Positions 2,493 to 36,372 of a stretch of DNA of 41,046 nt are shown one piece after another. The stretch's first letter is position 1. Each line of letters starts with the position of its first letter. The position numbers and the translations under genes were made by a program. The stretch is from positions 1 through 41,046 of the forward strand of contig JBDZUN010000004.1 of the NCBI GenBank assembly GCA_040255145.1. Direction: 5' to 3'. This stretch comes from Hyphomicrobiales bacterium (GTDB taxonomy: Bacteria > Pseudomonadota > Alphaproteobacteria > JBDZUN01). Below the pieces are notes generated by a model that saw nothing but the letters and a program-made list of their open reading frames with translations, did no database searches and was not told where the DNA came from.

Positions 2493-3727
2493 TGCTCGGC
2501 GCGGTGCTCCCGGTCCGCAGCCTGCTCGTCGCCATCTTCGTGCTGATGTCGGGGAGCGGGTTCCTGTCGACCCTGATCAGCCTGCGCCTGGAACGCACGG
2601 GCACAACCTCGCTGCTGATCGGCCTCGTCGCCACCTGCTATTTCCTGGGCCTGACCGTCGGCTCGCTCAGGGTCGCGCCGGTGATCCGGCGCGTCGGCCA
2701 TATCCGCGCCTTCGCCGCCTTCTTGTCGCTGTTCTCGGCCAGCGCGCTGACCTATGCCGTCTACCAGGACATCGCGCTGTGGGCGGCCTTGCGCTTCATC
2801 GACGGCCTGTGCATGGCGGGCGTGTTCGTCTGCATCGAGAGCTGGCTGAACGAGCGGGCGGAGCCGCAGACCCGCGGCGCAGTGCTAGCCGCCTATATGA
2901 TCGCGCTCTATGCCGGGCAGGCGATCGGCCAGTTCCTGCTCAACCTCGGCGTGGCCGCGCCGGCGCTGCCGTTCATGGCGGCGTCGATCCTGCTGTCGCT
3001 TGCGACGATCCCCGTGGTGCTGACCCGGATCGTCGGGCCGGCGCTGGACACCAGCACGCCGCTCAGCATGCGCCGGCTCTATGCCGCCTCGCCGCTCGGC
3101 ATCGTCGGCGCGGCCACCACCGGCATGATGATCGGCGCGTTCTACGCGCTGGGCGCGGTCCACGCCCGGCGGCTCGGCCTCGACCTGTCCGACACGGCGA
3201 CGTTCATGAGCGTCGTGATCTTCGGCGGCGTGGTGCTGCAATGGCCGATCGGCCGGCTGTCGGACCGGTTCGACCGCCGGGTGGTGATCGCCGGCACCGT
3301 CGCCGCCGCGTTCGTGGTCAGCGTGGGCATCGCGGTCGCCAGCGGGTTCGCGCCCGGACGCCTGCTGATGGTCCTGGGCGGCCTGTTCGGGGGCTTGAGC
3401 TTCGCGCTCTATCCGCTATGCGTCGCGCACACCAACGACCACCTGTCGCGGGACGGGCGGGTCGCGGCGAGCGGCGGACTGGTGCTGGCCTATTCGGCCG
3501 GCGCGGCGGTCGGGCCGATCGTCGGCGCGGGGGCGATGAGCCTGATGGGGCCGGCGGGCCTCTACGTGTTCATCGCGCTGTGCGCCGGCGCGACGCTGGG
3601 CTTCGCGCTGTGGCGGCAGCGAATCAGCGCGCCGGTGCCCGGGGCGATGCAGCAGCCCTATCAGATCCTGCCGCGCACGACGCCGATGTCGGCCTCGCTC
3701 GACCCCCATGCGGCGGAGGACGGCTAA
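2492..3727 (+). CDS. MFS transporter, substrate unknown
   Basis: ATG 2492 overlaps the upstream stop (TGATG), suggesting translational coupling. The 411-aa product is hydrophobic throughout, with about 12 TM-like segments and an Arg-rich TM2-3 loop (VIRRVGH). Only a generic family call is possible. Confidence 0.72.
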   Translation: MLGAVLPVRSLLVAIFVLMSGSGFLSTLISLRLERTGTTSLLIGLVATCYFLGLTVGSLRVAPVIRRVGHIRAFAAFLSLFSASALTYAVYQDIALWAALRFIDGLCMAGVFVCIESWLNERAEPQTRGAVLAAYMIALYAGQAIGQFLLNLGVAAPALPFMAASILLSLATIPVVLTRIVGPALDTSTPLSMRRLYAASPLGIVGAATTGMMIGAFYALGAVHARRLGLDLSDTATFMSVVIFGGVVLQWPIGRLSDRFDRRVVIAGTVAAAFVVSVGIAVASGFAPGRLLMVLGGLFGGLSFALYPLCVAHTNDHLSRDGRVAASGGLVLAYSAGAAVGPIVGAGAMSLMGPAGLYVFIALCAGATLGFALWRQRISAPVPGAMQQPYQILPRTTPMSASLDPHAAEDG

Positions 3728-3870
3728 GGGAAACGCGCCCCCATTCCACCAACGGATGGGCGGATTGTCGCAGGCAGTCCTTCCATCGCGCCGCCCGATG
3801 CTGGAACATTGACGGAAGGGGCCGGAAGGCCCGCGTCCGGCCGTGCCGGGTCGCTTCGGGGGGATCGTCC

Positions 3871-21450: not shown

Positions 21451-21951
21451 TCAGTCGCCGTGGGGGGCGGCCGCGGCCGCGGCGTCTTCCTCGGTCAGGA
21501 AGGTCGAAGCCGGCCGGGGGCGCCGGCGCGGAATCCTGCCCCGGCTGGCGGCGATGCCGAGTTCCAGGCTGTCGGCGATGCGGTGCGCGCGCTCGACGAA
21601 GTGTCTGGCCGCTGCTGGCGGGCAAATCTCCCGCGCCGTCTCGGCGAACAGCGTCAGCCAGCGGTCGAAATGCGGCGTGCCGACCGGCAGCGGCGTGTGC
21701 GCCACCATCGGCTGGCCGTGATAGCGGCCGCTCATCAGCGCGACCGAGGACCAGAAGGCGCACATCCGCTGAATGTGCGCTTCCCAGTCGTGCACTTTGT
21801 ATTCGAAGACCGGGCCGATCAGCGGGTCGCGCCGGGCGCGGTCATAGAAGCTGCGGACCAGCCGCTCGATCATCGGTTCGTCAATGCCGGTCCGGGCGAA
21901 GATATCGGCGACGATCTGCTCCCGGTCGCGCCGGAGATGGGGTGCGTCCAC
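21451..21951 (-). CDS. Group III truncated haemoglobin
   Basis: This is the C-terminal part of the artefactual ORF 21451..23040. GTG 21951 lies 4 nt after GAGGA; TTG 21975 is an alternative start. The motifs FYDRARRDPLIGPVF, W(E)AHIQRMCAFWSSVALMSGRYHGQPMVAHTPLP and FDRWLTLF match my memory of Ctb-type trHbIII. Confidence 0.72.
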   Translation of the reverse strand: MDAPHLRRDREQIVADIFARTGIDEPMIERLVRSFYDRARRDPLIGPVFEYKVHDWEAHIQRMCAFWSSVALMSGRYHGQPMVAHTPLPVGTPHFDRWLTLFAETAREICPPAAARHFVERAHRIADSLELGIAASRGRIPRRRPRPASTFLTEEDAAAAAAPHGD

Positions 21952-21986
21952 TATGTCCTCGCGCTGCCGCTCAGCCAAAAATGATA

Positions 21987-22006
21987 CATAACAAATAGAT
22001 GTTATG
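21987..22006. promoter_or_regulatory. AT-rich palindrome CATAACA-N6-TGTTATG upstream of the truncated haemoglobin gene
   Basis: Read directly: 21987..21993 and 22000..22006 are perfect reverse complements. They sit in a locally AT-rich 50-nt gap between the COG0523 stop (22050) and the globin start. The function is inferred. Confidence 0.3.
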
Positions 22007-22049
22007 CACTCAAGCGAGGACGCTGCCGTCGCAGCCGGTATTCCCGTCT

Positions 22050-23309
22050 TCAGGCGACGGCCGGCTGGTCCCAGCTTGGGAACGGGTCGCGCAGGGCGCG
22101 GTAGAGCGCCGGGTCGAAGCGGTCCTCCGGGCCGACCAGGCAATCTTCCAGCGCCGCTTCGATGGCGCGCCGGTCCATGCCGGGGCCGCCGATGAACACG
22201 ATCTCCTGCCGGCGGTCGCCCCAGACCGGCGACCAGCTTTTCGCCATCAGCTTCTGGAACGGTTCGTGGCGCGGCCAGAGCTGCCGGGCGACGCCGGCCC
22301 ACCAAAAGCCGCGCGCTTCGGTCTTCGCTTGGGCGCCGGCCCAGGACAGGTCGCCGACCTGGGCGGGTCGGGTGGCCAGCCAGAAGCTGCCCTTGGCGCG
22401 CAGCACGCCGGGATAGGGCCGGGTCGCGAAAGCGTGGAAACGGGCCGGATCGAACGGGCGGCGGGCGCGGAAGACGAAGCTCGACAGGCCGTATTCTTCG
22501 GTCTCCGGCACGTGGTCGGCAAAGCCGTAGAGCGCCTTGTGCCAGGCCGGATGGCGCGCCGCCTTCACCGCATCGAACGATCCGGTATGCAGCACCGCCG
22601 AAAGCGGCGCGCGGCCGAAATCGGCCTCGATCAGGCGGGCGTCGGCGTTCAGTGAGCGGATCAAGGCGCGGATGTCCCGGCGGCCGCGTTCGGATGTGGC
22701 GGACGCCTTGTTGATCACCACGACGTCGGCGAACTCGATCTGGTCGACCAGAAGGTCGATCAGGGTGCGCTCGTCGGCGTCGTCCGCGGCGTGGCCCAGA
22801 TCCTTCAGCCGGTCGCGGCTGCGGAATGAGTCCATCACGTTGAGCGCGTCGACCACCGTGACGAAGGTGTCGAGCCGCGCGATGTCGACCAGGGAGCGGC
22901 CCTCCTCGTCCCGGAACGAGAAGGAGGCGGCGATCGGGCGCGGCTCGGCGATGCCGGTGCTCTCGATCAAGAGGTAGTCGAAGCGGCCGCCGCCGGCCAG
23001 GCGCCGCACCTCGGTCAGCAGGTCGTCGCGCAGCGTGCAACAGATGCAGCCGTTCGACAGCTCGACCATCTGCTCGTCGGTATGGGACAGATCGAAGCCG
23101 CCGTCGCGGATCAGCTCCGCGTCGATGTTGACCTCGCTCATGTCGTTGACGATGACTGCGACGCGGATGCCGTCGCGGTTGTTCAGCACATGGTTGAGCA
23201 GGCTGGTCTTGCCGGCGCCGAGGAACCCGTTCAGCACCGTGACCGGCAGAAGATGGCGCCCCGCCGCAGACGGACGATCCGTTCCCGCCTCAGGCCGCGA
23301 GCTGTCCAT
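22050..23309 (-). CDS. COG0523-family G3E GTPase metallochaperone (CobW/YjiA/ZigA-like)
   Basis: The 419-aa product has Walker A GFLGAGKTSLLN, the CxCC metal motif GCICCTLRDDL, IESTGIAEP, and a CobW-type C-terminal domain. ATG 23309 overlaps the upstream giant gene by 20 nt. Confidence 0.85.
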   Translation of the reverse strand: MDSSRPEAGTDRPSAAGRHLLPVTVLNGFLGAGKTSLLNHVLNNRDGIRVAVIVNDMSEVNIDAELIRDGGFDLSHTDEQMVELSNGCICCTLRDDLLTEVRRLAGGGRFDYLLIESTGIAEPRPIAASFSFRDEEGRSLVDIARLDTFVTVVDALNVMDSFRSRDRLKDLGHAADDADERTLIDLLVDQIEFADVVVINKASATSERGRRDIRALIRSLNADARLIEADFGRAPLSAVLHTGSFDAVKAARHPAWHKALYGFADHVPETEEYGLSSFVFRARRPFDPARFHAFATRPYPGVLRAKGSFWLATRPAQVGDLSWAGAQAKTEARGFWWAGVARQLWPRHEPFQKLMAKSWSPVWGDRRQEIVFIGGPGMDRRAIEAALEDCLVGPEDRFDPALYRALRDPFPSWDQPAVA

Positions 23310-26300
23310 TGAACACCACGTCTACCCAGTAATTCGACTTGCTGTAGCTGCCGGACGGGAACAGGCCGGAACTGCCATAGGCGAAGACGCCGTTGCCGCC
23401 GCTGGCGTCGGAGGCCGGCGCATGGAGGGACCCGTTCGAGTGATCGGTGTCGAAATAATTGCCGGTCGCGGAGTAGTTGCCGTCGGTATGATAGGAGGCG
23501 ATGTAGGTGGTCCCGGCCGTGATCGCGACCGGGGTGTTGAGGTTGGCGGTCTGCCAGCCGCTCGCCGTTTCGTTGGTGAAGGTCGCGGTGGCGAGCAGGG
23601 TGCCGTCGGCGTTCCACAGATGACCCTCGTGGGCGCCGGTATTCTGCGGCCCCTTGTAGAACTTGATGCCGGTGATGGTGCCGGCCACGTCGGACGTGAA
23701 CTTCATGCCCAGTTCGACCGGGTTGGGATCGTCATCCGTGATCGTCGCCGGAGTATCGGACGGCGCGAACAGGCTGATTCCGGAGCCGGGCGCGTTCACC
23801 GTCAGGGAGACGGTGGCGCTGGCGCTGCCGCCGCGGCCGTCGCCGATCGTGTAGCCGAAGCTGGCCGCGCCGGTATAGCCGGCATTCGGCGTGAAGATGA
23901 CGGTCTGTGCCTGGGCGTTCAGCGACGCGACGCCGCCGGTGGCGCTGCCGACGCCGGTGACGGTCAGCGCGTCGCCGTCGGGATCGGTGTCGTTGGCGAG
24001 CAGCGCCGAGGTCGGCAGCGTGAGCGCCGTGTTCTCCTGGGTGCTGAAGCCGCTGTCGTTCGCGGCGACCGGGTTGTTGTTGGCGCCGGAGCCCTGGTTG
24101 TAGACGACATCGACCCAGTAATTGGCGCTGCCGTAAGTGGCGGTGGGGAACACGCCCGACGCACCGTAGGCATAGACGCCGTTGCCGCCGCTGGCGTCGG
24201 AGGCGAGTGCGGTCAGCGGTCCGTTGGTGACGGCATTGGTGAAGTAGTTGCCGGTGGCCGCGTAGTCGCCGTTGCTGTGATAGGACGCGATGTAGGTCGT
24301 GTTGGCAGCGATCGTCACCGGGCTCGCGAAGGTGGCGATCTGCCAGCCGCTCGCGGTTTCGTTGGTGAAGGTCGCGGTCGCCAGAAGGGTGCCGGTCGAC
24401 GACCACAGGTGCGCCTCATGCACACCGGTATCCTGCGGCCCCTTGTAGAACTTGATTCCGCTGATCGTCCCGGTGCTCGACGCCTGGAACTTCATGCCGA
24501 GCTCCACCGCCTTGGGGTCGTCCTCGCTGGGTCCGGTCGGCCCGTCGGACGGCGCGAACAGGCTGAGCGCGGTGCCGGGGGCGTTGACGGTCAGCGCCAC
24601 GGTGGCGGTCGCGCTGCCCCCGCGGCCGTCGCCGATCGTGTAGGTGAAGCCGGCCGCCCCGTCATAGCCCGCCGTCGGCGTGAAGATGACGGTCTGGGCC
24701 TGCGCGTTCAGTGCGATCGTGCCGTGGGTGGCGCCGCCCACGCTGACGATGCTGAGCGGGTCGCCGTCGGCGTCGCTGTCGTTGGCGAGCAGCGCGGCGG
24801 CGGCGATGGTCAGCGCGGCGTCCTGCTGGGTGCTGAAGCCGCTGTCGTTCGCCGCGACCGGATCGTTGTTGGCGGCGACGCCCTGTTCGTACACGACATC
24901 GACCCAGTAATTGGCGTTGCCGTATGTGGCGGTAGGAAACAGGCCGGACGCGCCGTAGGCAAAGACGCCGTTACCGCCGGCGACGTCGGAGGCCAGTGCG
25001 GTCAGCGGCCCGTTGGTCACGGCGTCGGCGAAGTAGTTGCTGTCCGCCGAATAGAAGCCGTTCGAGTGGTAGGAGGCGATGTAGGTCGTGTTGGCCGCGA
25101 TCGACACCGGGCTCGTGAAGGTGGCGGTCTGCCAGCCGCTGGCGGACTCGCCGGTGAAGGTCGCGGTGGCGAGCAGGGTGCCGGTCGACGACCACAGATG
25201 CGCCTCGTGCACGCCGGTATTCTGCGGGCCCTTGTAGAACTTGATCCCGGTGATCGTCCCGGCGCTCGACGCCTGGAACTTCATGCCGAGCTCGACCGGC
25301 AGCGGATCGTCTTCGGTGACCATGTCCGGGGCGGCCGAGGACGGGAACAGCGATACGCCGGTGCTCGGCTGGTCGACCGTCAGGGCGACGTTGGCCGAGG
25401 CCGTGCCGCCGCGCCCGTCGCCGACCGTGTAGGTGAAGCTGGCCGGGCCGTTATAGCCCGCGGTCGGCGTGAAAGTGATCGTCTGCGCCTGGGCGTTCAG
25501 CGCGACAGTGCCGTGAGTGGCGCCGCTGACGCCGGTGACGTTGAGGCCGTCGTGGTCGGCGTCGGTGTCGTTGGCCGTCAGGCTCGACGCCGCGATGACC
25601 AGCGGCGTGTCCTGCGCCGTGTTGAAGCCGGAATCATCCACCGCAATCGGAACGTGATTGGGCGACGATATGAACTGGACATCGACCCAATAGTTCTCGT
25701 TGGTGAACGTGTTGTCCGGGAACGTCGTCGTGTCGCCGTAGGCATAGACGCCGGCGCCGGTCGGCGCGATGAGCTGGCCGCTGGTGCGCGGGGCGTCGAA
25801 ATAGCCGGTCGTGGCGGAATAGCGGTTGCCGGTGTGGTAGGACGCGACATAGGTGGTGCCGGCCGTGACTGCCACCGGCTGCGAGAAGGTCACGGTCTGC
25901 CAGCCGCTATCGGTCTCGTTGGTGAACGTCGCGCTGGCCAGCAGGGTGCCGTCGGCGGTCCACAGATGCGCGGTATGCGTCCCCTGATTGAGGAAGCTTT
26001 TGTAGAAGCTGATGCTGGTGATCGTGCCGTCGGCGGTGGTCTGGAACTTCATGCCCAGCTCGACGCTGGCGAAGTCCTGGATGAATTCCGAATCGGTGTC
26101 GGCCGGCTTGTCGGCATAGGTCCAGAGGGTCGAGCCTTCCCACTGGCTGACGGTGATCGGCGTGCCCGTCGTCGGCGTGGCCTGCATGTTGAGGCTGTCG
26201 TCGACCGCACGCGCGAGGACGGTGTAGTTGCCCGCCGCCTCGACCCGGCCCGAATAGGTCCAGGTGTCGAAGCCGGTGGCCTTGTGCCACGTCGTGCCGC

Positions 26301-28530
26301 TGTCGATCGAGACCTCAACGCCGGCGACCTTGCCGCCGCCGCTGTCCTGCGCCGTGCCGGCCACGGTGATGTCCTGGCCTTCCAGGAAATCCCCGCCGGA
26401 GGACACGGAGGTTATGGTTGAGGTCGGCGCCGTATGGTCGGTCGTCCCGGTCGCGATGACGAGGCTCGCGTCCAGCGTATCGGGCTGGATCCCCATGTCG
26501 GCGAACAGGTTGACCATCGCCTGCTGCACGTTCGGGTCAGTCGGGATCTGCTCGTTGTCGTGGTGGTCATCCAGGCCCCATGACCAGTAGACCGTGCCCG
26601 CGCCGAACACGATCGCGCCGCTGTCGGCCCGGTACATCGTCAGGCTGTGCTGCGCCGCCGCGTTGTCGCCGACGACCGATCCGTAGTCGAGCAGGTAGGT
26701 GTTGACCGAGACGGTCGACAGCGACAGGTCGACCAGGCCCGCGGGGCGGAAGCCGTTATCGACGTCCGAATCCCATTCGTAGCCGAGCAGGCCGGTGACC
26801 AGGGCGCCGGTCTCGCCCGGCTGCAGTTGCGAAATGTCCGTGTTCCGCCAGAAGCGGAACTGGGACATGTCGTAGGGCACGGTGATCGTGTCCAGGCGAT
26901 AGGAATCGACCGTGAACATCGTCCCGGTCAGCGCGTTCTCCGGCTCCTGCCCCGGATCCTGGAACCGTTCGTCCCGCCAGGTGCCAGTGCTGGTGTCGGA
27001 GGGGTCGATGTCCGAATTCGCCCAGGTCTCCTTGTAGCAGACCAGCGTGCGGTAGGGTGTGCCGCTGCCGTCGATGCTGTCCTCCCAGCGGGTCTTCCAA
27101 TAGACCTCGTTGCCGCTGAAGAAGGCGAGGTTGACGCCCGCATCGCGCGCCGCCTCGACATTGGCGCGCTGGTCGGCCGACCAGTATTCGTCGTGGCCGA
27201 CCGACAGGAACGCCTCGTGGTTCATAAGCTGCTGGCCGGCGCGCGCGGTGTCGACGCCGGAGATGTACGAGACGTCGTAGCCGTTTTCCTCGATCCAGCG
27301 GATCGCGGAATATTCGGCGCCGAACAGGTAGTCCTGCGGCCCCGAGGCATAGACGTAGTCGCTGGTGATGAACGGCCGGTTGTAGCTGACCGCGTAGGCG
27401 CGCCCGATCGCCTGCAGGCCGCAATGGCAGTTGGGTGGCTGGTAGGACAGCATGTCGTCGGGGTTCAACGGCACGTCGCCGCCGTAGAAGCTGGCGCCGC
27501 CCCAGGCGTTATAGGCCTGCCAGGTGGTGTCCGAGGTCTGGAACACCATGTCGCTGTGCGATTGGTCGTCGCGGACGATGAACGGGATCTCGTTGACCCC
27601 TTCGGTGCCGTCCTCGCGCACCAGCTTCGCCAGATAGACGCCGGACACCGCGTCCGCCGGTACGTCCCAGCTCGCCGATACGCCCCAGTTGCCGCAGTCG
27701 ATCAAGCCGAGCGAATAATCGACGATCGGGTGCGGCTGGACCTGGGCGGTGTCGAGCTGGCGCTGGATCGTGGTGACCAGCCGCGCGCCATCGCCGCCGT
27801 AATAGCCCAGCCGATAGATGTCGATCCGATAGTTGGTCGAATCGGTATTGATCTTGAAATCGACGGTATCGCCATGATCGACGCTGATGTCGGTCGCGAA
27901 GCCTTCGATGTTGCGGTCGCCGGGTGTGGTGGAGCGCCAGACGCTCTCCGGCGTCCCCTGCTTCATGTTTTCCAGGGCAATGGCGTTGAGTTGCTGCGCT
28001 TGGGGTGCTGCCGCGGTCGAATCCGGGGCGTTGATTACCACCTGCGGGTCGGTCAGGAGCGCATTGACACCCTTGCTGAACGCGATCGGGCCGTTGGCCA
28101 ACGATTGGGGCAGCGTCGTCGTCGGCGTGCTGGCCACCGATTCCTGCGTCGTGGTCGGGCCGACCCCCGGGTCGATGTCCATGCCCACCGCGGTCGACTG
28201 CAGCGCCACCGCTGATGAGCCGGACGATATCGCGCTGCTGAGCGTCGATGTGACCGATGTGGCCCACGGGCGGACGGCCGGCACCGCGGTCGCTGACGTG
28301 GCGGCGGGGCCGCCCGGCAGGTCTCCGGCTGCGCCGCCGCCGGTCCCGGTCGGGTCGAGGGGCGAGATCGCGGTCGTCGCGCCGATGCCGGCGCCGTCGG
28401 CGGCCGATGAGTCCGCCGGTGCGCCGGTCAGTCCGGAAAGGGTCGATGTCGAATCCGCCGACGGCATTCGTGTCAGTGGTGCAGCGCCCGCGCCCGACGA
28501 CGATGCGAGAATCCGGCTGTTCGTATCCAT
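23290..28530 (-). CDS. Giant (1746 aa) multidomain protein of unknown function
   Basis: ATG at 28530. Domain order: a Ser/Thr/Ala/Gly-rich N-terminus, an N,N-dimethylformamidase-beta-subunit-like domain, an Ig-like domain, four DUF4082 modules and three interleaved cadherin-like modules. The DMFase-like core has DFKINTDSTNYRIDIYRLGYYGG, FIVRDD, TWQAYNAWGG, GHDEYWS and FFSGNEVYWKTRWE. The DUF4082 modules read VELGMKF...I(T/S)GIKFYKG...HLW...GWQ...TYIASYH...NYWVDVV. The cadherin-like modules read PVAANDSGFST...LLANDSDADGD...FTPTAGY.GAA.FTYTIGDGRGG. I see no classical signal peptide. Confidence 0.85.
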   Translation of the reverse strand: MDTNSRILASSSGAGAAPLTRMPSADSTSTLSGLTGAPADSSAADGAGIGATTAISPLDPTGTGGGAAGDLPGGPAATSATAVPAVRPWATSVTSTLSSAISSGSSAVALQSTAVGMDIDPGVGPTTTQESVASTPTTTLPQSLANGPIAFSKGVNALLTDPQVVINAPDSTAAAPQAQQLNAIALENMKQGTPESVWRSTTPGDRNIEGFATDISVDHGDTVDFKINTDSTNYRIDIYRLGYYGGDGARLVTTIQRQLDTAQVQPHPIVDYSLGLIDCGNWGVSASWDVPADAVSGVYLAKLVREDGTEGVNEIPFIVRDDQSHSDMVFQTSDTTWQAYNAWGGASFYGGDVPLNPDDMLSYQPPNCHCGLQAIGRAYAVSYNRPFITSDYVYASGPQDYLFGAEYSAIRWIEENGYDVSYISGVDTARAGQQLMNHEAFLSVGHDEYWSADQRANVEAARDAGVNLAFFSGNEVYWKTRWEDSIDGSGTPYRTLVCYKETWANSDIDPSDTSTGTWRDERFQDPGQEPENALTGTMFTVDSYRLDTITVPYDMSQFRFWRNTDISQLQPGETGALVTGLLGYEWDSDVDNGFRPAGLVDLSLSTVSVNTYLLDYGSVVGDNAAAQHSLTMYRADSGAIVFGAGTVYWSWGLDDHHDNEQIPTDPNVQQAMVNLFADMGIQPDTLDASLVIATGTTDHTAPTSTITSVSSGGDFLEGQDITVAGTAQDSGGGKVAGVEVSIDSGTTWHKATGFDTWTYSGRVEAAGNYTVLARAVDDSLNMQATPTTGTPITVSQWEGSTLWTYADKPADTDSEFIQDFASVELGMKFQTTADGTITSISFYKSFLNQGTHTAHLWTADGTLLASATFTNETDSGWQTVTFSQPVAVTAGTTYVASYHTGNRYSATTGYFDAPRTSGQLIAPTGAGVYAYGDTTTFPDNTFTNENYWVDVQFISSPNHVPIAVDDSGFNTAQDTPLVIAASSLTANDTDADHDGLNVTGVSGATHGTVALNAQAQTITFTPTAGYNGPASFTYTVGDGRGGTASANVALTVDQPSTGVSLFPSSAAPDMVTEDDPLPVELGMKFQASSAGTITGIKFYKGPQNTGVHEAHLWSSTGTLLATATFTGESASGWQTATFTSPVSIAANTTYIASYHSNGFYSADSNYFADAVTNGPLTALASDVAGGNGVFAYGASGLFPTATYGNANYWVDVVYEQGVAANNDPVAANDSGFSTQQDAALTIAAAALLANDSDADGDPLSIVSVGGATHGTIALNAQAQTVIFTPTAGYDGAAGFTYTIGDGRGGSATATVALTVNAPGTALSLFAPSDGPTGPSEDDPKAVELGMKFQASSTGTISGIKFYKGPQDTGVHEAHLWSSTGTLLATATFTNETASGWQIATFASPVTIAANTTYIASYHSNGDYAATGNYFTNAVTNGPLTALASDASGGNGVYAYGASGVFPTATYGSANYWVDVVYNQGSGANNNPVAANDSGFSTQENTALTLPTSALLANDTDPDGDALTVTGVGSATGGVASLNAQAQTVIFTPNAGYTGAASFGYTIGDGRGGSASATVSLTVNAPGSGISLFAPSDTPATITDDDPNPVELGMKFTSDVAGTITGIKFYKGPQNTGAHEGHLWNADGTLLATATFTNETASGWQTANLNTPVAITAGTTYIASYHTDGNYSATGNYFDTDHSNGSLHAPASDASGGNGVFAYGSSGLFPSGSYSKSNYWVDVVFNGQLAA
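23293..25659. repeat. Three tandem 789-bp (263-codon) coding repeat units, followed by a degenerate partial fourth unit up to about 26160
   Basis: Ghost plus-strand ORFs at 23663/24452/25241 and at 23891/24680 are exactly 789 nt apart. The 24-mer GTTGCCGCCGCTGGCGTCGGAGGC occurs at 23392 and 24181. The variant GTTACCGCCGGCGACGTCGGAGGC occurs at 24970. Confidence 0.85.
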
Positions 28531-28838
28531 GCTTAGCCCCCGTCGATCGCCGTCATGTGCGGTCGGGTCACCAGGACACAGCGTTTCTGTGATCGGGACG
28601 TGCGGAAAGGTATCTCTTTGGCGGTCGGATCAGCCGAAATAGGTAAGACGGCGAAGGCGGTTTCGATTGACAGCCGGATCGCGTTTCGATCCGTAAACGG
28701 ATTGGGGCGTCAGCCGGCGGTGGCGCGACGCGTTTGACCAATGAGACCATCGATGGATGGCATCTAACCCCTATGGGGAATCCAATATCCGATCAACGGG
28801 CGATAGCATTTCCGCTCTCCATTGGCGGAGGGCGCGAT

Positions 28839-29144
28839 ATGCAAAGATACAAGTCTGCGATTCTAGCCGTTGCGATTCTGGTCGGCGGCGCGACCGGCGC
28901 GTCCGCGTCGCTGGTCGATGTCAGCCGCGTGCAAATCTTGGCGGGCCCGAGCAATCCGGGCGACCTGATCAGGGACCTGATCAAGGATCTGATCAAGGAT
29001 CTGCGTGGGGGCCGCGGCGGCCCTAGCGGAGGACCGCATTCGGTGCCGGGGCCGGCCGCCGCCGTCGGGCTGTCGTACCTGCTGGCGGCGGGCGGCTATC
29101 ACCTGATCCGCCGACGCCGTCGTAACCGGGACAAGCAGGAATGA
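28839..29144 (+). CDS. Small secreted protein with a PEP-CTERM-like (VPGP-type) C-terminal sorting signal; putative exosortase substrate
   Basis: ATG 28839 lies 7 nt after GGAGGG. Signal peptide: MQRYKSAILAVAILVGGATGASA. The core contains DLIRDLIKDLIKDL and RGGRGGPSGGP. The C-terminus is VPGP, then AAAVGLSYLLAAGGYHLI, then RRRRRNRDKQE. The 5' codons are unusually AT-rich (AGA, TCT, ATT, CTA, GTT). Confidence 0.62.
   Translation: MQRYKSAILAVAILVGGATGASASLVDVSRVQILAGPSNPGDLIRDLIKDLIKDLRGGRGGPSGGPHSVPGPAAAVGLSYLLAAGGYHLIRRRRRNRDKQE
28962..29003 (+). repeat. In-frame 12-nt tandem repeat, 3.5 copies (GACCTGATCAGG GACCTGATCAAG GATCTGATCAAG GATCTG), encoding DLIR-DLIK-DLIK-DL
   Basis: Read directly from the sequence. 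Confidence 0.9.
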
Positions 29145-29249
29145 CGTCCAATCGCGGCTTTGGCAGCGGCTGATCGCGCGGGCGTTCCACCTGGGCCGGC
29201 CAAGGTGTTCACGGCACGGACGGTAGCTCTCTGCTGACGGGTTTTGCGC

Positions 29250-30107
29250 ATGCGTGACGGGCTGGCAGCGATGGGACCGGCGGCGCAGGAATATGGCGCG
29301 TCGTCGGCTTACGTGGTCGGCCGCGGCGCGCTGTTCGGCGGCGTCGCGCTGATCGGCATCGCCAATGCGCTGACGGAGCGGGTCGTTTCCGCCGTCAGGT
29401 TCGATGGCCTGTCCCAAGCGCTGATCACGACCTTCGGCGTCAGCGTCCTGGTATGGATCGGCGCCGGCTTGGGCATATCGCTGCTGCTGCGCGACCGCGC
29501 GGCGCCGGCGACGCGGCGCGACTGGACGGTCGCGATGGTGGCTGCCGTCGCGTTCCTCATCCCGTCGAGCATGGCAAGCTGGGTCGCGCTGACCGGCGTC
29601 GCCGCCTATTGCCTTCACGTTGCCATGCCGCGCACTGCCCTGCATCGGGGCGCGCTGATCGTGCTCGCGATCGCGGCGGTCCGTTTCTGGAGCCACGTCG
29701 CCTTCGCATTGTTCGGCCACTACATCCTTCAGATCTATGCGATGCTCGTAAGCCGGCTGGTCGGGGTCGCGCGGGCCGGTAACGCCCTGCAGCTTGCGGA
29801 CGGCGGCTATCTCTGGATCGCGCCCGGTTGCTCGTCCTTCACCAACGTCTCGCTGACGGTTCTGTGCTGGATCCTGTTCGCCCAGGCGACGGACCGTCCA
29901 CTGCGCCGTCGCGCATCGGCCTGGTGCCTGCTGGCGATCGGCGGGGTCGTCGCCATCAATGCTGTCCGCATCGCCCTGATCGTGCGCTACCCGGATTTCT
30001 TCCAGCTCATCCATGGGCCGATCGGCGCGACGACCGCTGGCTGGCTGACTGTCGCCGCCATGGTGGGCCTCTGTGCTTTCGGGACCAGGCGCGATGCGCG
30101 CGTCTAG
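29250..30107 (+). CDS. Exosortase/archaeosortase-family integral membrane protein (small, single-domain)
   Basis: Polytopic hydrophobic protein. Numbered in the 287-aa ORF, it has an ordered Cys196 (GNALQLADGGYLWIAPGCSSF), Arg242 (INAVRIALIV) and His257 (LIHGPIG). The spacing of 46 and 15 residues resembles the exosortase/archaeosortase catalytic residues. It lies directly downstream of a sorting-signal protein. The start could be ATG 29250 or ATG 29271; the track start at 29244 is TTG. Confidence 0.68.
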   Translation: MRDGLAAMGPAAQEYGASSAYVVGRGALFGGVALIGIANALTERVVSAVRFDGLSQALITTFGVSVLVWIGAGLGISLLLRDRAAPATRRDWTVAMVAAVAFLIPSSMASWVALTGVAAYCLHVAMPRTALHRGALIVLAIAAVRFWSHVAFALFGHYILQIYAMLVSRLVGVARAGNALQLADGGYLWIAPGCSSFTNVSLTVLCWILFAQATDRPLRRRASAWCLLAIGGVVAINAVRIALIVRYPDFFQLIHGPIGATTAGWLTVAAMVGLCAFGTRRDARV

Positions 30108-30573
30108 CGTCCGGGCGGCCTTCCTCGCGGTGCTGATCGTCACCGTTGCCGTCAAAGTCTCGATCGCCGGCCGGGAGCTTACCGAGCCGCCCGCACACCC
30201 GGAGAAGCCGTTCGTGGATCGGCTGCGGGCGCAAGGCTTCGACGTGACGCTCCGCTCCGACTCCAACCCGGCGGTAATGCGCGCGGTGGCCGGTGCGTGC
30301 CGGCTGTCCGCGGCGATCACGTCGCCCGCCGGATGGGACCGGGCAGTGGTCCAGCGTCTGGCCCACGACGGCGACCGCACGTATTTCGTGTTTCGCGGGA
30401 GCGTCTACGCGACGCAGCCCGTCATCCGCACGTCGCTTCATTACTATTGGTGGCGGGCCCGGCGATCCTTCGGCGTCGATGCGCGATTAAGCCCGGTACT
30501 GGCGGTCATCGCGTCGCCGGCCTGTGACGCAGCCACGGCGGTACGGCCGTTCCTGGCGCACGGCGTCGGCTAA
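30094..30573 (+). CDS. Hypothetical membrane-anchored protein, translationally coupled to the exosortase gene
   Basis: ATG 30094 overlaps the exosortase stop (TAG 30105..30107) by 14 nt. It has an N-terminal anchor MRASSVRAAFLAVLIVTVAVKVSIAG followed by a roughly 130-aa soluble domain. GC3 is high. I recognise no family. Confidence 0.5.
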   Translation: MRASSVRAAFLAVLIVTVAVKVSIAGRELTEPPAHPEKPFVDRLRAQGFDVTLRSDSNPAVMRAVAGACRLSAAITSPAGWDRAVVQRLAHDGDRTYFVFRGSVYATQPVIRTSLHYYWWRARRSFGVDARLSPVLAVIASPACDAATAVRPFLAHGVG

Positions 30574-31039: not shown

Positions 31040-31834
31040 ATGACCCAGCAATTCAACGTTGAAGCCGCACTGACGTCCTACTGCCCGTCGGATGCCATCG
31101 TCGGCGTCCAGGGCCGCGAGAACGGCGCCGGCCCAGCATCGGCGAGGATTCCCGCCACCGTACTCGCGGAGAAGGTCGTCGTGGTCGTGGATGGCTCGGC
31201 ATTCAGCCGCGAATGCCTCACCAAGGCGCTGCAAACAACGTACACGTCGGGTGCCATCGTTGCGTTCGAGGGCGCGGAGCAATTGCTGCACGCCGACCTC
31301 GATCCCGACACGGTCCGCCTGGTTCTGTTCAATGCCCATGGCAAGCGCGCGCGCGACGTCGGGGTCGAGCAGGCCCTGCAGCAGATCCGGCTGAACTTCG
31401 CGGAGGTCGCGGTCATCCTGATCTCGGATTTCGAGAGCGGCGATCGCGTGATCGAGGCGCTGGGGCGCGGCGTCCGCGGCTACATCCCGACCAGCGCGAG
31501 TTTCGACGTCGCGATCAAGGCGATGCGGCTGGTGGAGGCGGGCGGCACCTTCGTGCCGGCGACCAGCCTGATGAACCTGTCGGACATGGCGCCCGGCTCC
31601 GCCAACGGGCCGCACAAGGTCAACGGCGTCGACGGACCCGACTTCACGCCGCGTCAGCTCGGCGTCCTCCACCGGATCACCGAAGGCAAGGCCAACAAGA
31701 TCATCGCCCACGAGCTGGCGATCAGCGAGAGCACGGTGAAGGTCCACGTGCGCAACATCATGCAGAAGCTGAAGGCGACCAACCGGACGGAAGTGGCCTT
31801 CCGCACCAGGGGCATGTTCAGCCACGAAATGTAA
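31040..31834 (+). CDS. LuxR/FixJ-family regulator with a degenerate (pseudo-)receiver domain
   Basis: ATG 31040 lies 8 nt after GGAGG. The C-terminal HTH is FTPRQLGVLHRITEGKANKIIAHELAISESTVKVHVRNIMQKL. The receiver-like N-domain aligns to NarL/FixJ. The phospho-acceptor position is Asn (RLVLFNAHG, AAT at 31331..31333) and the conserved Lys position is Thr (GYIPTSAS). Confidence 0.8.
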   Translation: MTQQFNVEAALTSYCPSDAIVGVQGRENGAGPASARIPATVLAEKVVVVVDGSAFSRECLTKALQTTYTSGAIVAFEGAEQLLHADLDPDTVRLVLFNAHGKRARDVGVEQALQQIRLNFAEVAVILISDFESGDRVIEALGRGVRGYIPTSASFDVAIKAMRLVEAGGTFVPATSLMNLSDMAPGSANGPHKVNGVDGPDFTPRQLGVLHRITEGKANKIIAHELAISESTVKVHVRNIMQKLKATNRTEVAFRTRGMFSHEM

Positions 31835-31879: not shown

Positions 31880-34123
31880 ATGATCGTAGTCGATCAGAAC
31901 GAGAACAGGTCGTCAGGCTTCCTGGTCAACTGCCTTCGCGTTGCGGGCCGGCGGAAATGGATAATCGGCTTATCCATGCTGGGCGGCCTCGCTATCGCGC
32001 TGTTGCTCAACGCGATGGCGCTGCCGCGCTATACCGCTGGGGCGGTGGTCGCGCTCGACGCGCGCAAGGTGCAGGTCATCGACATCAACTCCGTGGTGTC
32101 CAAGCTTCCGGAGGAGAATGCCGCGCTGCGCACCGAACTCGACGCGATCACGTCCCGGTCGATGGCCAGCCTGGTCGCCGACCGGCTGAAGATCGAGACC
32201 CGGCCCGACCTGCTCGCCGCGATGCGGGTTCGCAATCCGCTCGCGGTGCGGGTACACGGCGCGCTTGCGCGCGTGGCCGGCGCGTTCGGCCGCCTCCGGC
32301 CGTCCTGGCTGACTGGCGCGGAGGACGACCCGGCGCCGGTCGTCCGGCCGTACGCGGAAAAGGTCGAGCGGGCGGCGATCGTGGACTGGCTGCAATCCGG
32401 CCTGGGCGTCAGCAATGACGGCCGTTCCTTCACCATCTACATCGACTTCTCGTCGCCCGATCCCGCTGTGTCCTCCGAAATCGCCAACGCGTTCGCGGCC
32501 ACTTATCTCGACGATCTGGTCAGCATGAAGGTGCGCGCCGCGCGCAACGCCAGCACGTGGCTGCGGCAGCGGCTGGAGGAGATGCGGCACGAACTGGAAG
32601 TGTCGGAGACCGCGGTGTTCGAGTTCCGCCGTTCCGCCGGCCTGATACAGTTTCGCGGCGATACGCTTGCCAGCCAGCAGATCAGCGAATTGAACACGCG
32701 GCTCGGCGAGGTGCGGACCGAGCGCGCCAGGATCGAAGCCCGGATTCAGAATGCGATGAGCAGCAACGGCGGTCTTGCCGAAGTTGCGGATTCGCCGCTG
32801 ATCGAGGCGCTGCGCAAGCAGATTGGCGACAACGACGCCAAGCTCGCCGACCTGCGCGATGCCGGCGCGCAGCGCAATCCGGAGACCCTCGCCCTGGAAT
32901 CGCAGCAGGCGGCGCTGCACAAGCAGTTGACGCGCGAAACCGGGCGCGCCGTCGCCAGCCTCAAGGAAGAGGCCGCCGCGGTCGGGCGCCAGGAGGCGGA
33001 ACTGCAATCGAGCCTGCAGGGCATGGCGTCACGCTTCGGCCACGCCGGCGAGGCCGCCGTCCGGCTCAGCCAGCTCGAGCGGGAGGCCGATGCCAGCCGC
33101 GCCATCTATGAAAGCTTTCTTGGCCGCTACAAGGAGACGATCGAGCAGGAAGGGCTGACGATGCCGGAGGCCCGGCTGTTATCGGCGGCGGAACCGCCGG
33201 TGGTGCCGACCGGCGCAGGCCGCCTGTCGGTGATGCTGTTCGGCCTGCTGAGCGGGTTGGCGTTCGGCGCCATGCTGGCAGCGTTCCGTGAGCGGCTCGA
33301 CGAGCGGGTGCACGACGTCGCCGATGTGGAGCGCGTCGCGGCCGCCTCGGTCATGGGCGTCCTGCCGGCAGTGCCGCGCTGGCGCCCGGCGCCGGAACTT
33401 CAGGTGTCGCGGTTCAACCGCACGCCGTTCGGCGAGGCGATCCAGCGGACCGGCGCCGCGCTGCGGCTGCCGCGGGCGCCCCTGCGGGCGCGGGTGATCA
33501 TGGTCACGTCGGCCGCGGCGCGTGAGGGCAAGACGTCGTTCTGCACCGCGCTCGCCCGCTTTCTGGCCATGTCCGGCCGCCGCGTCCTGGTGATCGACGC
33601 CGATTTCCGCCGGCCGCGTCTGGGCCGGGCGTTCGGCTTGGTCGAGCGCGCGGATACCCAGAATGTCATCCACGGCACCGTGAGCCTCGCCGAAGGCGTA
33701 CAGGCCGATCCGCGGTCGGGCGCGCATGTGCTGACGGCGCTGGCCGAACCGGGCGCGCTGCATTCGCACCTGCAGGGACCGGGATGGGACGCGCTGGTCG
33801 CCCGGGCACGCGAGCATTATGACGTGGTGATCCTGGACACGCCGCCGGTCGCGGCCGCGTCGGATGCCGGCGTGATCGGCGCCTGCGCGGACGTGAACCT
33901 GTTTCTGGTGCGATGGGGTCGGTCCACGCGGTCGGGCATTGTCGGCGCGATCCGGTTCCTGAACCTGTGCGGGCTGACCGTCGACGGCGTCGTGCTGACC
34001 AGGACCAAGGCCCGCGGCGCACCATCCTATCTGACCACCTACGGCCAGGGACCGGGCGGCCTGACGATCGTACCAGGCGAGACCCGCGCGGCGCTGCGCG
34101 CCCCGACGGCGAACTCGGTCTGA
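31880..34123 (+). CDS. Polysaccharide co-polymerase / BY-kinase-like protein (Wzc/ExoP/GumC family)
   Basis: The 747-aa product has an N-terminal TM and a Wzz-like periplasmic domain with a long coiled-coil. A second TM is followed by a cytoplasmic P-loop domain: Walker A SAAAREGKTS, A' VLVIDADFRRP, Walker B YDVVILDTPP. The C-terminal tail has only two Tyr (SYLTTYGQ). Confidence 0.85.
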   Translation: MIVVDQNENRSSGFLVNCLRVAGRRKWIIGLSMLGGLAIALLLNAMALPRYTAGAVVALDARKVQVIDINSVVSKLPEENAALRTELDAITSRSMASLVADRLKIETRPDLLAAMRVRNPLAVRVHGALARVAGAFGRLRPSWLTGAEDDPAPVVRPYAEKVERAAIVDWLQSGLGVSNDGRSFTIYIDFSSPDPAVSSEIANAFAATYLDDLVSMKVRAARNASTWLRQRLEEMRHELEVSETAVFEFRRSAGLIQFRGDTLASQQISELNTRLGEVRTERARIEARIQNAMSSNGGLAEVADSPLIEALRKQIGDNDAKLADLRDAGAQRNPETLALESQQAALHKQLTRETGRAVASLKEEAAAVGRQEAELQSSLQGMASRFGHAGEAAVRLSQLEREADASRAIYESFLGRYKETIEQEGLTMPEARLLSAAEPPVVPTGAGRLSVMLFGLLSGLAFGAMLAAFRERLDERVHDVADVERVAAASVMGVLPAVPRWRPAPELQVSRFNRTPFGEAIQRTGAALRLPRAPLRARVIMVTSAAAREGKTSFCTALARFLAMSGRRVLVIDADFRRPRLGRAFGLVERADTQNVIHGTVSLAEGVQADPRSGAHVLTALAEPGALHSHLQGPGWDALVARAREHYDVVILDTPPVAAASDAGVIGACADVNLFLVRWGRSTRSGIVGAIRFLNLCGLTVDGVVLTRTKARGAPSYLTTYGQGPGGLTIVPGETRAALRAPTANSV

Positions 34124-34364: not shown

Positions 34365-35597
34365 CTAGAACTGCACGTGGAAGCCGAGCATCGCGTAATA
34401 ACGCTCATAGCGGTCGAGCGTGCGGTCCGAGAAGCGGTTGGAGTAGCCGACCGTGCCGGTCAACGACATGCGCCGGTTGACCAGATATTCCACCGTGGCG
34501 GCGCCGGTCGGCGTGACCATCTGGCGATCTTCGTCCTTGTACGTTTCCTGTAGGACGCCGACCTCGACCTTGGTCAGGAGGTTGTGCCGGGCTTCCTGTT
34601 CCAGCGCCAGCCCGAATTCCGTCTCGATACGTCCGGACGCGCCGATCTCGATCGTGGCCACGTCCTCTCGCCGGACCGAGGCCGTCAGCGCGCTGCGGGG
34701 CGTGATGCTCCAGGTCACGGCGCCGCGCGCGCCGACCCCCAGGAACGGACGGAGCGCCGGATCGTCGTTGTCCACGTGGAACAGGCCGACGGCCACCTCG
34801 CCCCACCATTTGTCGGTGATGTCGATGTTCGTTCCGAGATAGAAGCCGGTGGTGAACGAATCGCGATCGAGGCCGTCGCGGTCGCGCGCGGCGTCGACGT
34901 CGCGCCGCTCGGCATAGGCCTCCAGGAAGGGGCTGAACCGCGGCGTCAGGGTGTAGGAGCCGCGCAGCGTGCCGCGATATTCCGTGCGGTCGCGGTCCTG
35001 CTGGCCGCGATCGAGGTAGTTGTAGCGCTCGACGCGCGCGTTCGCCGACAACGTGACCCGGTTGTGGGTATAGGCGTAGCCCAGCGTCCCCGACGCGGTG
35101 TTGTAGGCCGCGGGGCTCTGGTTGCGGCCGCGCGTCGATTCCGGGTCGGCGCGGCTTTCCGCCAGATGCGCGCCGCTGAAGTCCATCGACAGCTCGCTCC
35201 GCCGGTTCAGGGCATAGCGGCTTTCCGTCTCGCCGCCGAAGGTCGTGTTGTCCTGCTCCGAATGTTCGGCGAACACCGCCCGGTCGGCCCAGAGGCGCGA
35301 GCTCAGCGACAGGCCTCCGTGATCGGTCTTGGCGGTCACGGACGGCGCGACGTGCGTGACGAAATCGCCTTCGACGTCATTGTGGGCGGCAAAGATGTTG
35401 CTGTCGTAGCCTTCGCTGACGTCGAGCTCGGGCGCGACGATCAGCGGGCCGGCCTTGATCAGGTGCGGTTCATAGCCTGGACGCGGCAATTGCCAAGGCG
35501 TCGTCGGCCGCTGCTGCTGCGCGGCGGCCGGATCGGGGGGGATCAACCAACAGCAGCACAGCGTCCACCCGACCAGCGCGCGCCGCCAGACGGCCAT
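34365..35597 (-). CDS. Outer-membrane beta-barrel protein associated with polysaccharide export
   Basis: The 410-aa product starts at ATG 35597 with a signal-like N-terminus ending PAAAQQ. It shows an alternating-polarity strand pattern rich in Y/G/S/T/R/D and ends GFHVQF, a terminal aromatic typical of OMPs. It lies 49 nt downstream of the Wza-like gene. Confidence 0.68.
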   Translation of the reverse strand: MAVWRRALVGWTLCCCWLIPPDPAAAQQQRPTTPWQLPRPGYEPHLIKAGPLIVAPELDVSEGYDSNIFAAHNDVEGDFVTHVAPSVTAKTDHGGLSLSSRLWADRAVFAEHSEQDNTTFGGETESRYALNRRSELSMDFSGAHLAESRADPESTRGRNQSPAAYNTASGTLGYAYTHNRVTLSANARVERYNYLDRGQQDRDRTEYRGTLRGSYTLTPRFSPFLEAYAERRDVDAARDRDGLDRDSFTTGFYLGTNIDITDKWWGEVAVGLFHVDNDDPALRPFLGVGARGAVTWSITPRSALTASVRREDVATIEIGASGRIETEFGLALEQEARHNLLTKVEVGVLQETYKDEDRQMVTPTGAATVEYLVNRRMSLTGTVGYSNRFSDRTLDRYERYYAMLGFHVQF

Positions 35598-35646: not shown

Positions 35647-36210
35647 CTAGAACCAGCTTTCGTAGACATAGATTGTATCGTTCGGCTGGACGGCGGTGCT
35701 CGGCGACGCTTGGCCCTCGACCGGCTTGCCGCCGGTCGTACGCGTGATGGCGACGTGGTTCTCCTCCGCCCGGAAGGTATAGCCGCCGGCGATCGCCACC
35801 GCGGTCCGCACGGTCATGCCGGGGGTATACGGATAGAGACCGGGCCGCTGAACCTCGCCCAGGATGAAGAAGGGCCGGTACTGCTCGACCTCCACCGTGG
35901 TGCTCGGGTTGCCGCGAATCTGCTGCTCGGTCGCGCGGGCCGCGATGCGCGTCTCGACCTCGCGCGGAGTCAGGCCACCGACCTTGACGATGCCGATCAG
36001 CGGAATGGAGATGTTGCCGGTATCGCTGACGGTGTATTCGCGATCGGCCGCGTCGACGCCCTGGACGGTGACGCGGATGCGGTCCCCCGCGCCAAGCTGG
36101 TACGGCTGGTTCCCCGCATCGCCGATCGGCTGCAGGCGGCTCCATGGCGCCGCGCAGCCGGTCAACCCAAGCAAAAGCACCAGCACCGCCGTGCTACGCA
36201 GCCGCAGCAT
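35647..36210 (-). CDS. Short Wza/GumB/ExoF-type outer-membrane polysaccharide export (OPX) lipoprotein
   Basis: ATG 36210 lies 5 nt after GGAGGGG. It gives MLRLRSTAVLVLLLGLTGC, with the lipobox LTGC. The Poly_export motif is YQLGAGDRIRVTV...VSDTGNISIPLIGIVKVGGLTPREVE. One SLBB-like segment follows (FFILGEVQRPGLYPYTPGMTVRTAVAIAGG). At only 187 aa it has no room for a Wza-type C-terminal OM-spanning helix. Confidence 0.85.
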   Translation of the reverse strand: MLRLRSTAVLVLLLGLTGCAAPWSRLQPIGDAGNQPYQLGAGDRIRVTVQGVDAADREYTVSDTGNISIPLIGIVKVGGLTPREVETRIAARATEQQIRGNPSTTVEVEQYRPFFILGEVQRPGLYPYTPGMTVRTAVAIAGGYTFRAEENHVAITRTTGGKPVEGQASPSTAVQPNDTIYVYESWF

Positions 36211-36372
36211 CGCATCCCCTCCGCACTCTGGCAGCATTGTTGGCATCGCGGCGTAACCACCGCAAGCCGTTCCGTCCACCGGCGATATCGATTTCTCCGC
36301 AATGTTGCGCGCGCGACACCGGATGGGCGCCCGTGCCGCCGTATCGACAGCTCGCTCGTCCTTCGCTCTGTT

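Follow-up and report, generated by a model that had tools for sequence, protein, structure and literature searches.

We analysed 41,046 nucleotides (nt) of a contig from a Hyphomicrobiales bacterium (JBDZUN010000004.1, GenBank assembly GCA_040255145.1, positions 1 to 41,046; this whole stretch is hereafter "the window") and found at 28839-30573 a cassette of three co-directional genes, which encode a 101-amino-acid (aa) pre-protein with a Pro-Gly-Pro (PGP) motif in its C-terminal tail, a polytopic membrane protein of 285 or 287 aa depending on the start codon, and a 159-aa membrane-anchored protein (Table 1). We consider it likely that this cassette is a protein-sorting system built on an uncurated alphaproteobacterial subfamily of exosortases. 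The kind of system is already known, namely exosortase-type protein sorting; what NCBIfam release 20.0, Pfam and the literature we searched do not cover is the enzyme subfamily, this flavour of sorting signal, the partner protein and the prevalence of very small, Gly-rich substrates.

Comparison with an orthologous metagenomic locus (L001) supports all three genes as coding, since each shows an excess of differences at third codon positions: differences at codon positions 1/2/3 number 20/13/40 in the small gene, 49/35/84 in the enzyme gene and 26/20/60 in the third gene. All three reading frames are intact, and their third-position GC content (GC3) is high, at 0.77-0.85. Within the small gene GC3 is 0.53 over the first 15 codons versus 0.82 over the remainder, in agreement with a preliminary description of this DNA that had noted AT-rich 5' codons there; the same description had reported the co-directional trio, which the open reading frames (ORFs) confirm, and the 14-nt overlap of the third gene's ATG with the enzyme stop, which is present as described. 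A GGAGGG ribosome-binding site, read from the sequence, stands 8 nt before the small-gene ATG. We rejected the possibility that the small ORF is spurious on its conservation, codon-position pattern, GC3 and ribosome-binding site.

The three-gene arrangement was found again across genera, a recurrence that exceeds chance. We examined 26 loci (the window, three metagenomic contigs and 22 species-representative genomes), with trio loci in Microvirga, Bradyrhizobium, Devosia and Falsiroseomonas as well as in metagenome-assembled genomes (MAGs). At least one small ORF with a PGP-type tail lies within approximately 1.5 kb of the enzyme gene in 22 of the 26, or in 23 when a pseudogene remnant is included. 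The small gene is mostly directly upstream of the enzyme gene and elsewhere divergent, downstream or duplicated, and wherever downstream sequence is available, a homologue of the third gene comes next after the enzyme gene; one locus (L002) is cut at its contig end. Two checks proposed beforehand, whether the small ORF is conserved beside enzyme homologues and whether the arrangement as a whole is kept around them, thus come out in favour at most of these loci, and this conservation strengthens the preliminary reading of an exosortase-type enzyme, a cognate small substrate and an accessory protein. The remnant, in Microvirga arabica (L006 2537-2695), contains two in-frame stops and lies just upstream of the enzyme gene, and intact small paralogues (P0187, P0212) are present elsewhere in the same species.

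Adjacency of enzyme and target genes is accepted evidence for sorting systems with few targets (10.1101/2023.06.07.544157). The cassette resembles in this respect the JDVT-CTERM/myxosortase-like protease system (Haft 2023, 10.1101/2023.06.07.544157): in both, the genes for enzyme and target are as a rule neighbours and are probably transcribed together. The enzyme family of that system is unrelated to the present one. It also differs from one-enzyme/one-target systems in having several small paralogues per Microvirga genome and, in some clades, two to three targets per locus.

The enzyme and its downstream partner

The membrane protein matches TIGR04178, the exosortase/archaeosortase signature, over residues 192-279 with 25.8 bits against a cutoff of 23. 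Among 140 full-length representatives with mutual identity of at most 50%, Cys194 is conserved in 100%, Arg240 in 99%, His255 in 97% and Asn237 in 98%. In the 287-aa numbering the first three residues are Cys196, Arg242 and His257, which the preliminary description had recognised as following the order of the exosortase catalytic residues; the conservation of all three bears this out. In the literature this Cys/Arg/His set is suspected to be catalytic throughout the exosortase/archaeosortase family, and mutagenesis of archaeosortase A showed Cys173, Arg214 and Arg253 to be critical. In the eight nearest homologues (alignment A1) the Cys, Arg and His are invariant, as are the motifs WIAPGCSS, NxxRIxLI and HG. 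Membership of the exosortase family accordingly rests on the borderline TIGR04178 match taken together with the conserved Cys/Arg/His, and not from Pfam.

When the window enzyme and those of Bradyrhizobium, Aliirhizobium, Microvirga, L026 and L028 were compared with the Xrt, Crt and Art subfamily models of NCBIfam, nothing matched at E ≤ 1 other than two very weak hits to ArtE and ArtF; a match above cutoff to an already described Xrt subfamily had been named beforehand as evidence against novelty. A profile of the enzyme family recovered 244 proteins at E ≤ 1e-30 and 1043 at E ≤ 0.001 from 1.84 billion representative proteins. The AlphaFold2 model of the enzyme (mean predicted local distance difference test, pLDDT, 76.7) shows a polytopic, helical protein; read by eye, it has eight long helices, and a short beta-hairpin precedes the Cys. 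Judged by its sequence, the membrane protein represents a true but divergent, uncurated exosortase subfamily.

The third protein consists of an N-terminal membrane helix followed by an alpha/beta domain of approximately 130 aa, which matches its earlier description as N-terminally anchored; its AlphaFold2 model (pLDDT 79) likewise places a small alpha/beta domain behind one membrane helix. Across 18 diverse members (alignment A6) the invariant positions are a Lys in the N-terminal helix (Lys21 in the window, 30154-30156, inside or at the end of the membrane helix), two Cys (Cys69 and Cys144), Gly80, a Gln-Pro pair and Pro134, and the positive N-terminus together with the Cys pair suggests that the domain is periplasmic. 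Sequence searches of Pfam, NCBIfam and the PDB gave no match for the third protein, and Foldseek of its model against the PDB gave none at E ≤ 0.001; the Pfam EpsI family is matched by 0 of the 18 sequences, and TIGR02914 by none of those tested.

A single ORF of 463 aa encodes both enzyme and third protein in Microvirga sp. BT688 and M. makkahensis (L010 2328-3719, L014 6760-8151), a gene fusion that is evidence that the two proteins act together. Among 158 representatives, 4 of 453-462 aa (P0009, P0040, P0052, P0138) match the fusion in length. The statement that the enzyme has no fused EpsI-like domain is true of the window's gene, but in other species the third protein is fused to the enzyme. 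According to the literature, the EpsI gene directly follows that of EpsH, or the two are fused; because the third gene is always downstream of the enzyme gene and in some species fused to it, its product is by position the counterpart of EpsI, with any homology undetected by the TIGR02914 and Pfam models.

The small protein, its tail and its carriers

By inspection, residues 1-23 of the pre-protein are a Sec-type signal peptide ending ASA ahead of a Ser; a DLI[RK] repeat and then a Gly-rich core occupy residues 24-68, and the sorting signal residues 69-99. This reading agrees with the preliminary description of a 101-aa pre-protein with a Sec signal peptide, a polar core and a tripartite C-terminal signal, and the proposed sequence of that signal, VPGP followed by 18 hydrophobic residues and RRRRRNRDK, is found as described. 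Five close orthologues share 67-83% identity with the small protein, and the changes are conservative. The DLI[RK] repeat is specific to the window's clade: its conservation, proposed beforehand as a check, is seen in close orthologues, which retain xIKDLIKDLL, and not in other genera, where Gly/Trp/His-rich cores replace it.

A profile built from 15 small proteins recovered 2218 proteins at E ≤ 1, the best 120 of which are all 69-112 aa long; this census of carriers is biased towards small proteins. In the same best 120 of 2218, source names are "hypothetical protein" or absent, except for one UniRef MYXO-CTERM label. That label, "MYXO-CTERM domain-containing protein", belongs to an 80-aa PGP-tailed protein of Microvirga makkahensis (P0190, WP_160887033.1) and looks mistaken, as the tail has no Cys. 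Signal-peptide-like N-termini are present in all aligned members of the small-protein family. The cores of the 120 best homologues are 33% Gly and differ by clade, with a DLIK helix here, GWGHGG-type repeats in Microvirga, Cys-containing cores in Bradyrhizobium, and a core with a PADRGxTPGLGWG motif in Devosia and others. We also observed the more general core motif P-[PA]-D-R-[GN]-x(1-3)-[ST]-P-G-L-G-W-G right after the signal peptide in L003, L004, L016, L017, P0215, P0244 and P0263; carriers of this type belong to Devosia, Microvirga and MAGs, and the window's clade has the DLIK repeat instead.

In contrast to these variable cores, the tail is strongly conserved. All of the best 120 homologues (100%) keep P-G-P, Gly at +7 and Leu at +8 in their tails, and 98% keep Pro at +9; the middle residue of P-x-P is Gly in 120 of 120. 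The consensus over these homologues is [KV]-G-A-P-G-P-[IV]-A-G-[AV]-G-L-P-[FI]-L-x-x-A-G-G-Y-x-x-x-R-R-x-R-x-R, that is, a GAPGPxAGxGLP signature, a hydrophobic helix of approximately 18 residues and an Arg/Lys cluster ending no more than approximately 10 residues from the stop, and the prevalence of GAPGP makes the window's VPGP a local minority variant. The tail has the attributes listed for a general tripartite sorting signal (10.1101/2023.06.07.544157): it lies at the C-terminus, its P-G-P and G-L-P are invariant, it includes a hydrophobic helix with an Arg cluster, and the protein that carries it begins with a signal peptide.

None of the CTERM and sorting-domain models of NCBIfam and Pfam matches any tail examined at E ≤ 1, and three larger carriers stayed without a match even at E ≤ 10; the same limits apply to the absence of PEP-CTERM matches (TIGR02595 / PF07589). 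The VPLPA-CTERM class (TIGR03370) also occurs in alphaproteobacteria, and its motif likewise begins V-P and precedes a hydrophobic helix and an Arg cluster. The tails described here instead conserve P-G-P and then A-G-x-G-L-P, and we rejected membership of that class, since neither the window protein nor its relatives match TIGR03370 even at E ≤ 10; the kinship to VPLPA-CTERM suggested in the preliminary description is thus not upheld. Literature searches for PGP-, APGP- and VPGP-CTERM, and for exosortases with Microvirga or Bradyrhizobium, found nothing relevant.

The same tail closes proteins of 218-241 aa at the distant loci L026 (482-1150, 4592-5248) and L028 (8119-8844), where it ends in VPGPIVGAGLPGL...RRRRR, so it is not limited to mini-proteins. 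Outside the tail the carriers are unrelated, whether they have DLIK, Gly/Trp/His-rich or Cys-containing cores or are the 218-241-aa proteins. PGP-tailed genes occur in the neighbourhoods of L026, L028 and L032 alike, and two copies flank the enzyme locus on the Microvirga ossetica megaplasmid. At least three small carriers are present in Microvirga puerhi, on three contigs. One adjoins the enzyme gene; of the remaining two, the one whose surroundings we inspected lies among unrelated genes and is unlinked to the enzyme. A Pseudaminobacter carrier is unlinked to the enzyme within the available sequence. The window's own 41 kb contain no second PGP-tailed protein, a regular-expression match at 4862-5011 being in an implausible frame. 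The small protein had been described as a "dedicated" substrate, which holds to the extent that it adjoins the enzyme in most loci; it does not hold for the unlinked Microvirga paralogues, the 218-241-aa carriers and the Rhizobiaceae loci without such a neighbour.

Genomic surroundings of the cassette

The Pfam domains of the flanking genes confirm that the cassette lies between a giant DUF4082 gene and an exopolysaccharide export locus, as had been described (Table 1). The giant protein has no C-terminal sorting tail. The 308 nt ahead of the small gene are unusually similar to their counterpart in L001, at a level close to that of the coding sequences, and contain long identical blocks, among them TTCGATTGACA (28662-28672) and the perfect palindrome TCCGTAAACGGA (28690-28701), which from their sequence conservation may be an operator or leader element. 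Some PEP-CTERM genes are reported to have sigma-54 promoters; in the region ahead of the small gene we found no sigma-54-like site better than chance, no sigma-70-like site, no terminator and no Rfam family. There is no terminator-like site between the three genes.

Table 1. Features of the cassette and of its surroundings in the window.
Feature	Position	Strand	Basis or detail
Giant protein, 1746 aa, with four DUF4082, DMFA2_C and cadherin-like domains	23290-28530	-	Pfam
Upstream intergenic region, presumed promoter and leader of the small gene	28531-28838	+	alignment with L001
Small gene, predicted substrate	28839-29144	+	101-aa ORF; orthologues; third-position differences versus L001
Tandem repeat, 12-nt unit, 3.5 copies	28962-29003	+	Tandem Repeats Finder; encodes DLIRDLIKDLIKDL, residues 42-55
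Tripartite sorting signal	29043-29135	+	residues 69-99
VPGP	29043-29054	+	residues 69-72
Hydrophobic helix, 18 residues	29055-29108	+	residues 73-90
Basic cluster RRRRRNRDK	29109-29135	+	residues 91-99
Exosortase/archaeosortase-family membrane protein	29250 (ATG) or 29244 (TTG) to 30107	+	285 or 287 aa
Predicted catalytic Cys194 codon	29829-29831	+	conservation
Predicted catalytic Arg240 codon	29967-29969	+	conservation
Predicted catalytic His255 codon	30012-30014	+	conservation
Accessory protein gene	30094-30573	+	159 aa
GerE-type response regulator	31040-31834	+	Pfam
Wzc-like chain-length/tyrosine-kinase protein	31880-34123	+	Pfam
BBP2_2 outer-membrane protein	34365-35597	-	Pfam
Poly_export/SLBB protein	35647-36279	-	Pfam

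Against models of XrtA/XrtB-associated families (EpsA, EpsF/EpsG, TIGR03016, EpsE/pepcterm_export) the window's neighbours score under the cutoff, and in L001 the export genes stand in the same order as in the window. The neighbourhood in Microvirga terricola (L007) contains genes for Wzz, Poly_export, WecG, a Wzy-like protein and glycosyltransferases, that on the Rhizobium sp. WL3 plasmid a fucose/colanic-acid-like cluster, and that of L026 a PrsT protein above cutoff (331 versus 312), a Wzc-like protein and a sugar transferase. In Bradyrhizobium genosp. SA-3 (L019) a type I secretion pair accompanies a 1897-aa multi-domain secreted protein (1971-7664, + strand) with LamG, GSDH, Big_7 and PKD domains; this very large protein lies directly upstream of the cassette, so that the window and L019 are alike in having a very large multi-domain secreted protein at that position. 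Further from the cassette, a 529-aa ORF at 21451-23040 (- strand), unrelated to the trio, resembles a bacterial-globin domain weakly towards its C-terminal end (E 1e-5) and matches no NCBIfam model.

Proposed mechanism, competing explanations and meaning

We take archaeosortase A of Haloferax volcanii as the mechanistic precedent because it is, in the literature, the only member of the family with experimental evidence of helix removal and lipid attachment. Its PGF-CTERM system shares with the present one the superfamily signature TIGR04178 and a tripartite signal in which motif and helix directly adjoin; it differs in being archaeal, in its PGF motif, large S-layer glycoprotein substrates and archaeal lipid acceptor, and in having no counterpart of the 159-aa protein. 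Our data establish the genes, how conserved and linked they are, the signature match, the conserved residues and the fusion. The chemistry of sorting set out here, including cleavage and its site, transpeptidation and the acceptor, is drawn by analogy from archaeosortase A and from the general exosortase model, and what the third protein does is likewise a proposal. On that analogy, the 101-aa pre-protein would be exported via Sec and its signal peptide removed; the C-terminal helix would hold the substrate in the inner membrane, with the Arg cluster in the cytoplasm and VPGP at the periplasmic face; and the polytopic enzyme would recognise the GAPGPxAGxGLP-type signature and cleave at or beside it by means of Cys194, Arg240 and His255. 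The freed peptide of approximately 46-49 residues would then be transferred, as in archaeosortase A, to a lipid or to the polysaccharide of the adjacent locus, or alternatively the enzyme might simply release it. The 159-aa protein would be a fixed periplasmic subunit of the enzyme, in the place that EpsI holds beside EpsH/XrtA.

Several findings weigh against reading the cassette as an exosortase system. The TIGR04178 match is borderline, and four of the six family members tested score under its cutoff (five relatives from other genera give 19.4, 28.5, 21.3, 21.3 and 18.4 bits). The window enzyme has no Pfam match at E ≤ 1, PF09721 (Exosortase_EpsH) included, and for none of the eight close homologues does the precomputed Pfam field contain an entry. 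A missing PF09721 match had been named beforehand as evidence against an exosortase; we do not accept it as a refutation, given the TIGR04178 match and the conserved residues, and the exosortase identity thus keeps the support of these two while lacking that of PF09721. A profile search of the PDB and Foldseek against the PDB (E ≤ 0.001) find no solved relative of the enzyme. No PGP-tailed gene lies in the 8 kb on either side at L018 and at the Aliirhizobium locus L022, or within 6 kb on the Rhizobium sp. WL3 plasmid (L031, NZ_CP042825.1). Finally, the neighbourhood of the Bradyrhizobium locus L021 is without polysaccharide genes; the polysaccharide link of the trio is frequent but not universal, and a functional tie between the export genes and the trio is putative.

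Two substitutions in the window's own copy belong with these points, as they could mean that it is impaired. In the enzyme, Tyr163 (29736-29738) replaces an Asp found in 94% of the 140 relatives and in all seven close homologues (LQIYAM versus LQIDAM); in the substrate, Ser79 stands where 98% have Pro and Tyr80 where relatives have Phe or Ile (29073-29078). Tyr163 and Ser79-Tyr80 could be a compensating pair, early decay, or an assembly error in a metagenome-derived contig. A cassette that is decaying or inactive in this genome, with the family functional elsewhere, would fit the substitutions and has a parallel in the small-gene remnant beside the enzyme gene of Microvirga arabica. We nevertheless think this very unlikely: all three frames are intact with high GC3, the Cys, Arg and His are retained, differences from L001 fall mostly at third codon positions, and sequencing or assembly errors or compensation could account for the substitutions themselves.

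The XrtA/PEP-CTERM/EpsI system (Haft et al. 2006, PMC1569441) invites a different explanation, in which the cassette is a divergent XrtA (or XrtB) system, PGP a drifted PEP and the 159-aa protein a drifted EpsI. The two have much in common. XrtA, too, is a polytopic enzyme with conserved Cys, Arg and His, often encoded within polysaccharide loci, and its substrates combine an N-terminal signal peptide with a motif, a hydrophobic helix and an Arg cluster, so that the tripartite layout is identical and PGP and PEP are one residue apart; a second protein is encoded right after the enzyme or joined to the enzyme at its C-terminus, and the third gene behaves like EpsI in both position and fusion. 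A distant member of the present family, at L026, adjoins the PrsT gene noted above, with Wzc-like and sugar-transferase genes close by, and the window's neighbours resemble XrtA/XrtB-associated families, though below cutoff. We regard this explanation as unlikely, however, because the models that should recognise such a system do not: in the six enzymes tested neither XrtA, XrtB nor any other Xrt/Crt/Art model (bar the weak ArtE/ArtF matches) nor, for the window enzyme, the Pfam exosortase model finds a match, the PEP-CTERM models miss the GAPGPxAGxGLP motif in every tail tested, and the downstream protein has no similarity to EpsI that TIGR02914 or the Pfam model detects. The family's mere 1043 representatives (E ≤ 0.001) among 1.84 billion proteins also suggest that it is separate from the bulk of exosortases. 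Further differences are that the 41-kb window contains no PrsK, PrsR or PrsT gene, its local regulator being of GerE type, and that the present substrates are mostly small (69-112 aa) and Gly-rich, as judged from the best 120 of 2218.

It is also highly improbable, in our judgement, that the small proteins, once their signal peptide is removed, simply stay in the inner membrane as bitopic proteins on a permanent, uncleaved C-terminal anchor, their genes linked to the enzyme gene through some other shared role such as polysaccharide export. Small paralogues unlinked to an enzyme gene and enzyme loci without an adjoining small gene would both be in keeping with this. A plain anchor, however, would not need an invariant P-G-P...G-L-P at the start of its helix, and the tail is conserved on cores that are hypervariable, which is the pattern published for sorting signals (10.1101/2023.06.07.544157); the same tail is moreover found on the unrelated 218-241-aa proteins beside distant enzymes of the same family.

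If the cassette is a protein-sorting system of an uncurated exosortase subfamily, a more specific reading can be put forward, which we hold only tentatively and with some doubt: that this is a distinct, unnamed subfamily with its own "PGP-CTERM" signal and an obligatory non-EpsI partner, coupling Gly-rich, hypervariable peptides of approximately 25-60 residues by their C-terminus to a lipid or an exported polysaccharide. Were this true, the cassette would give rise to a peptide-capped polymer or a lipopeptide coat rather than surface enzymes or adhesins, and such a coat would be widespread in soil and nodule alphaproteobacteria (Microvirga, Bradyrhizobium, Devosia).

The family also exposes an annotation gap. 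More than 2000 small PGP-tailed proteins (E ≤ 1) are without a family, and in RefSeq both the enzyme (WP_147884957.1) and partner (WP_147884958.1) homologues of Rhizobium sp. WL3 (L031 5947-7312) are named "hypothetical protein"; such gaps could be closed by three new models, one each for enzyme subfamily, partner and sorting domain. To our knowledge, bacterial exosortases are widespread, yet the attachment target of their substrates is still unknown. The present subfamily could offer a simple handle on the acceptor, with one enzyme, one fixed partner and an adjacent substrate of a few dozen residues, so short that the mature peptide would suit mass-spectrometric identification of a C-terminal adduct, and its carriers include the culturable and genetically tractable genera Microvirga, Bradyrhizobium and Devosia.

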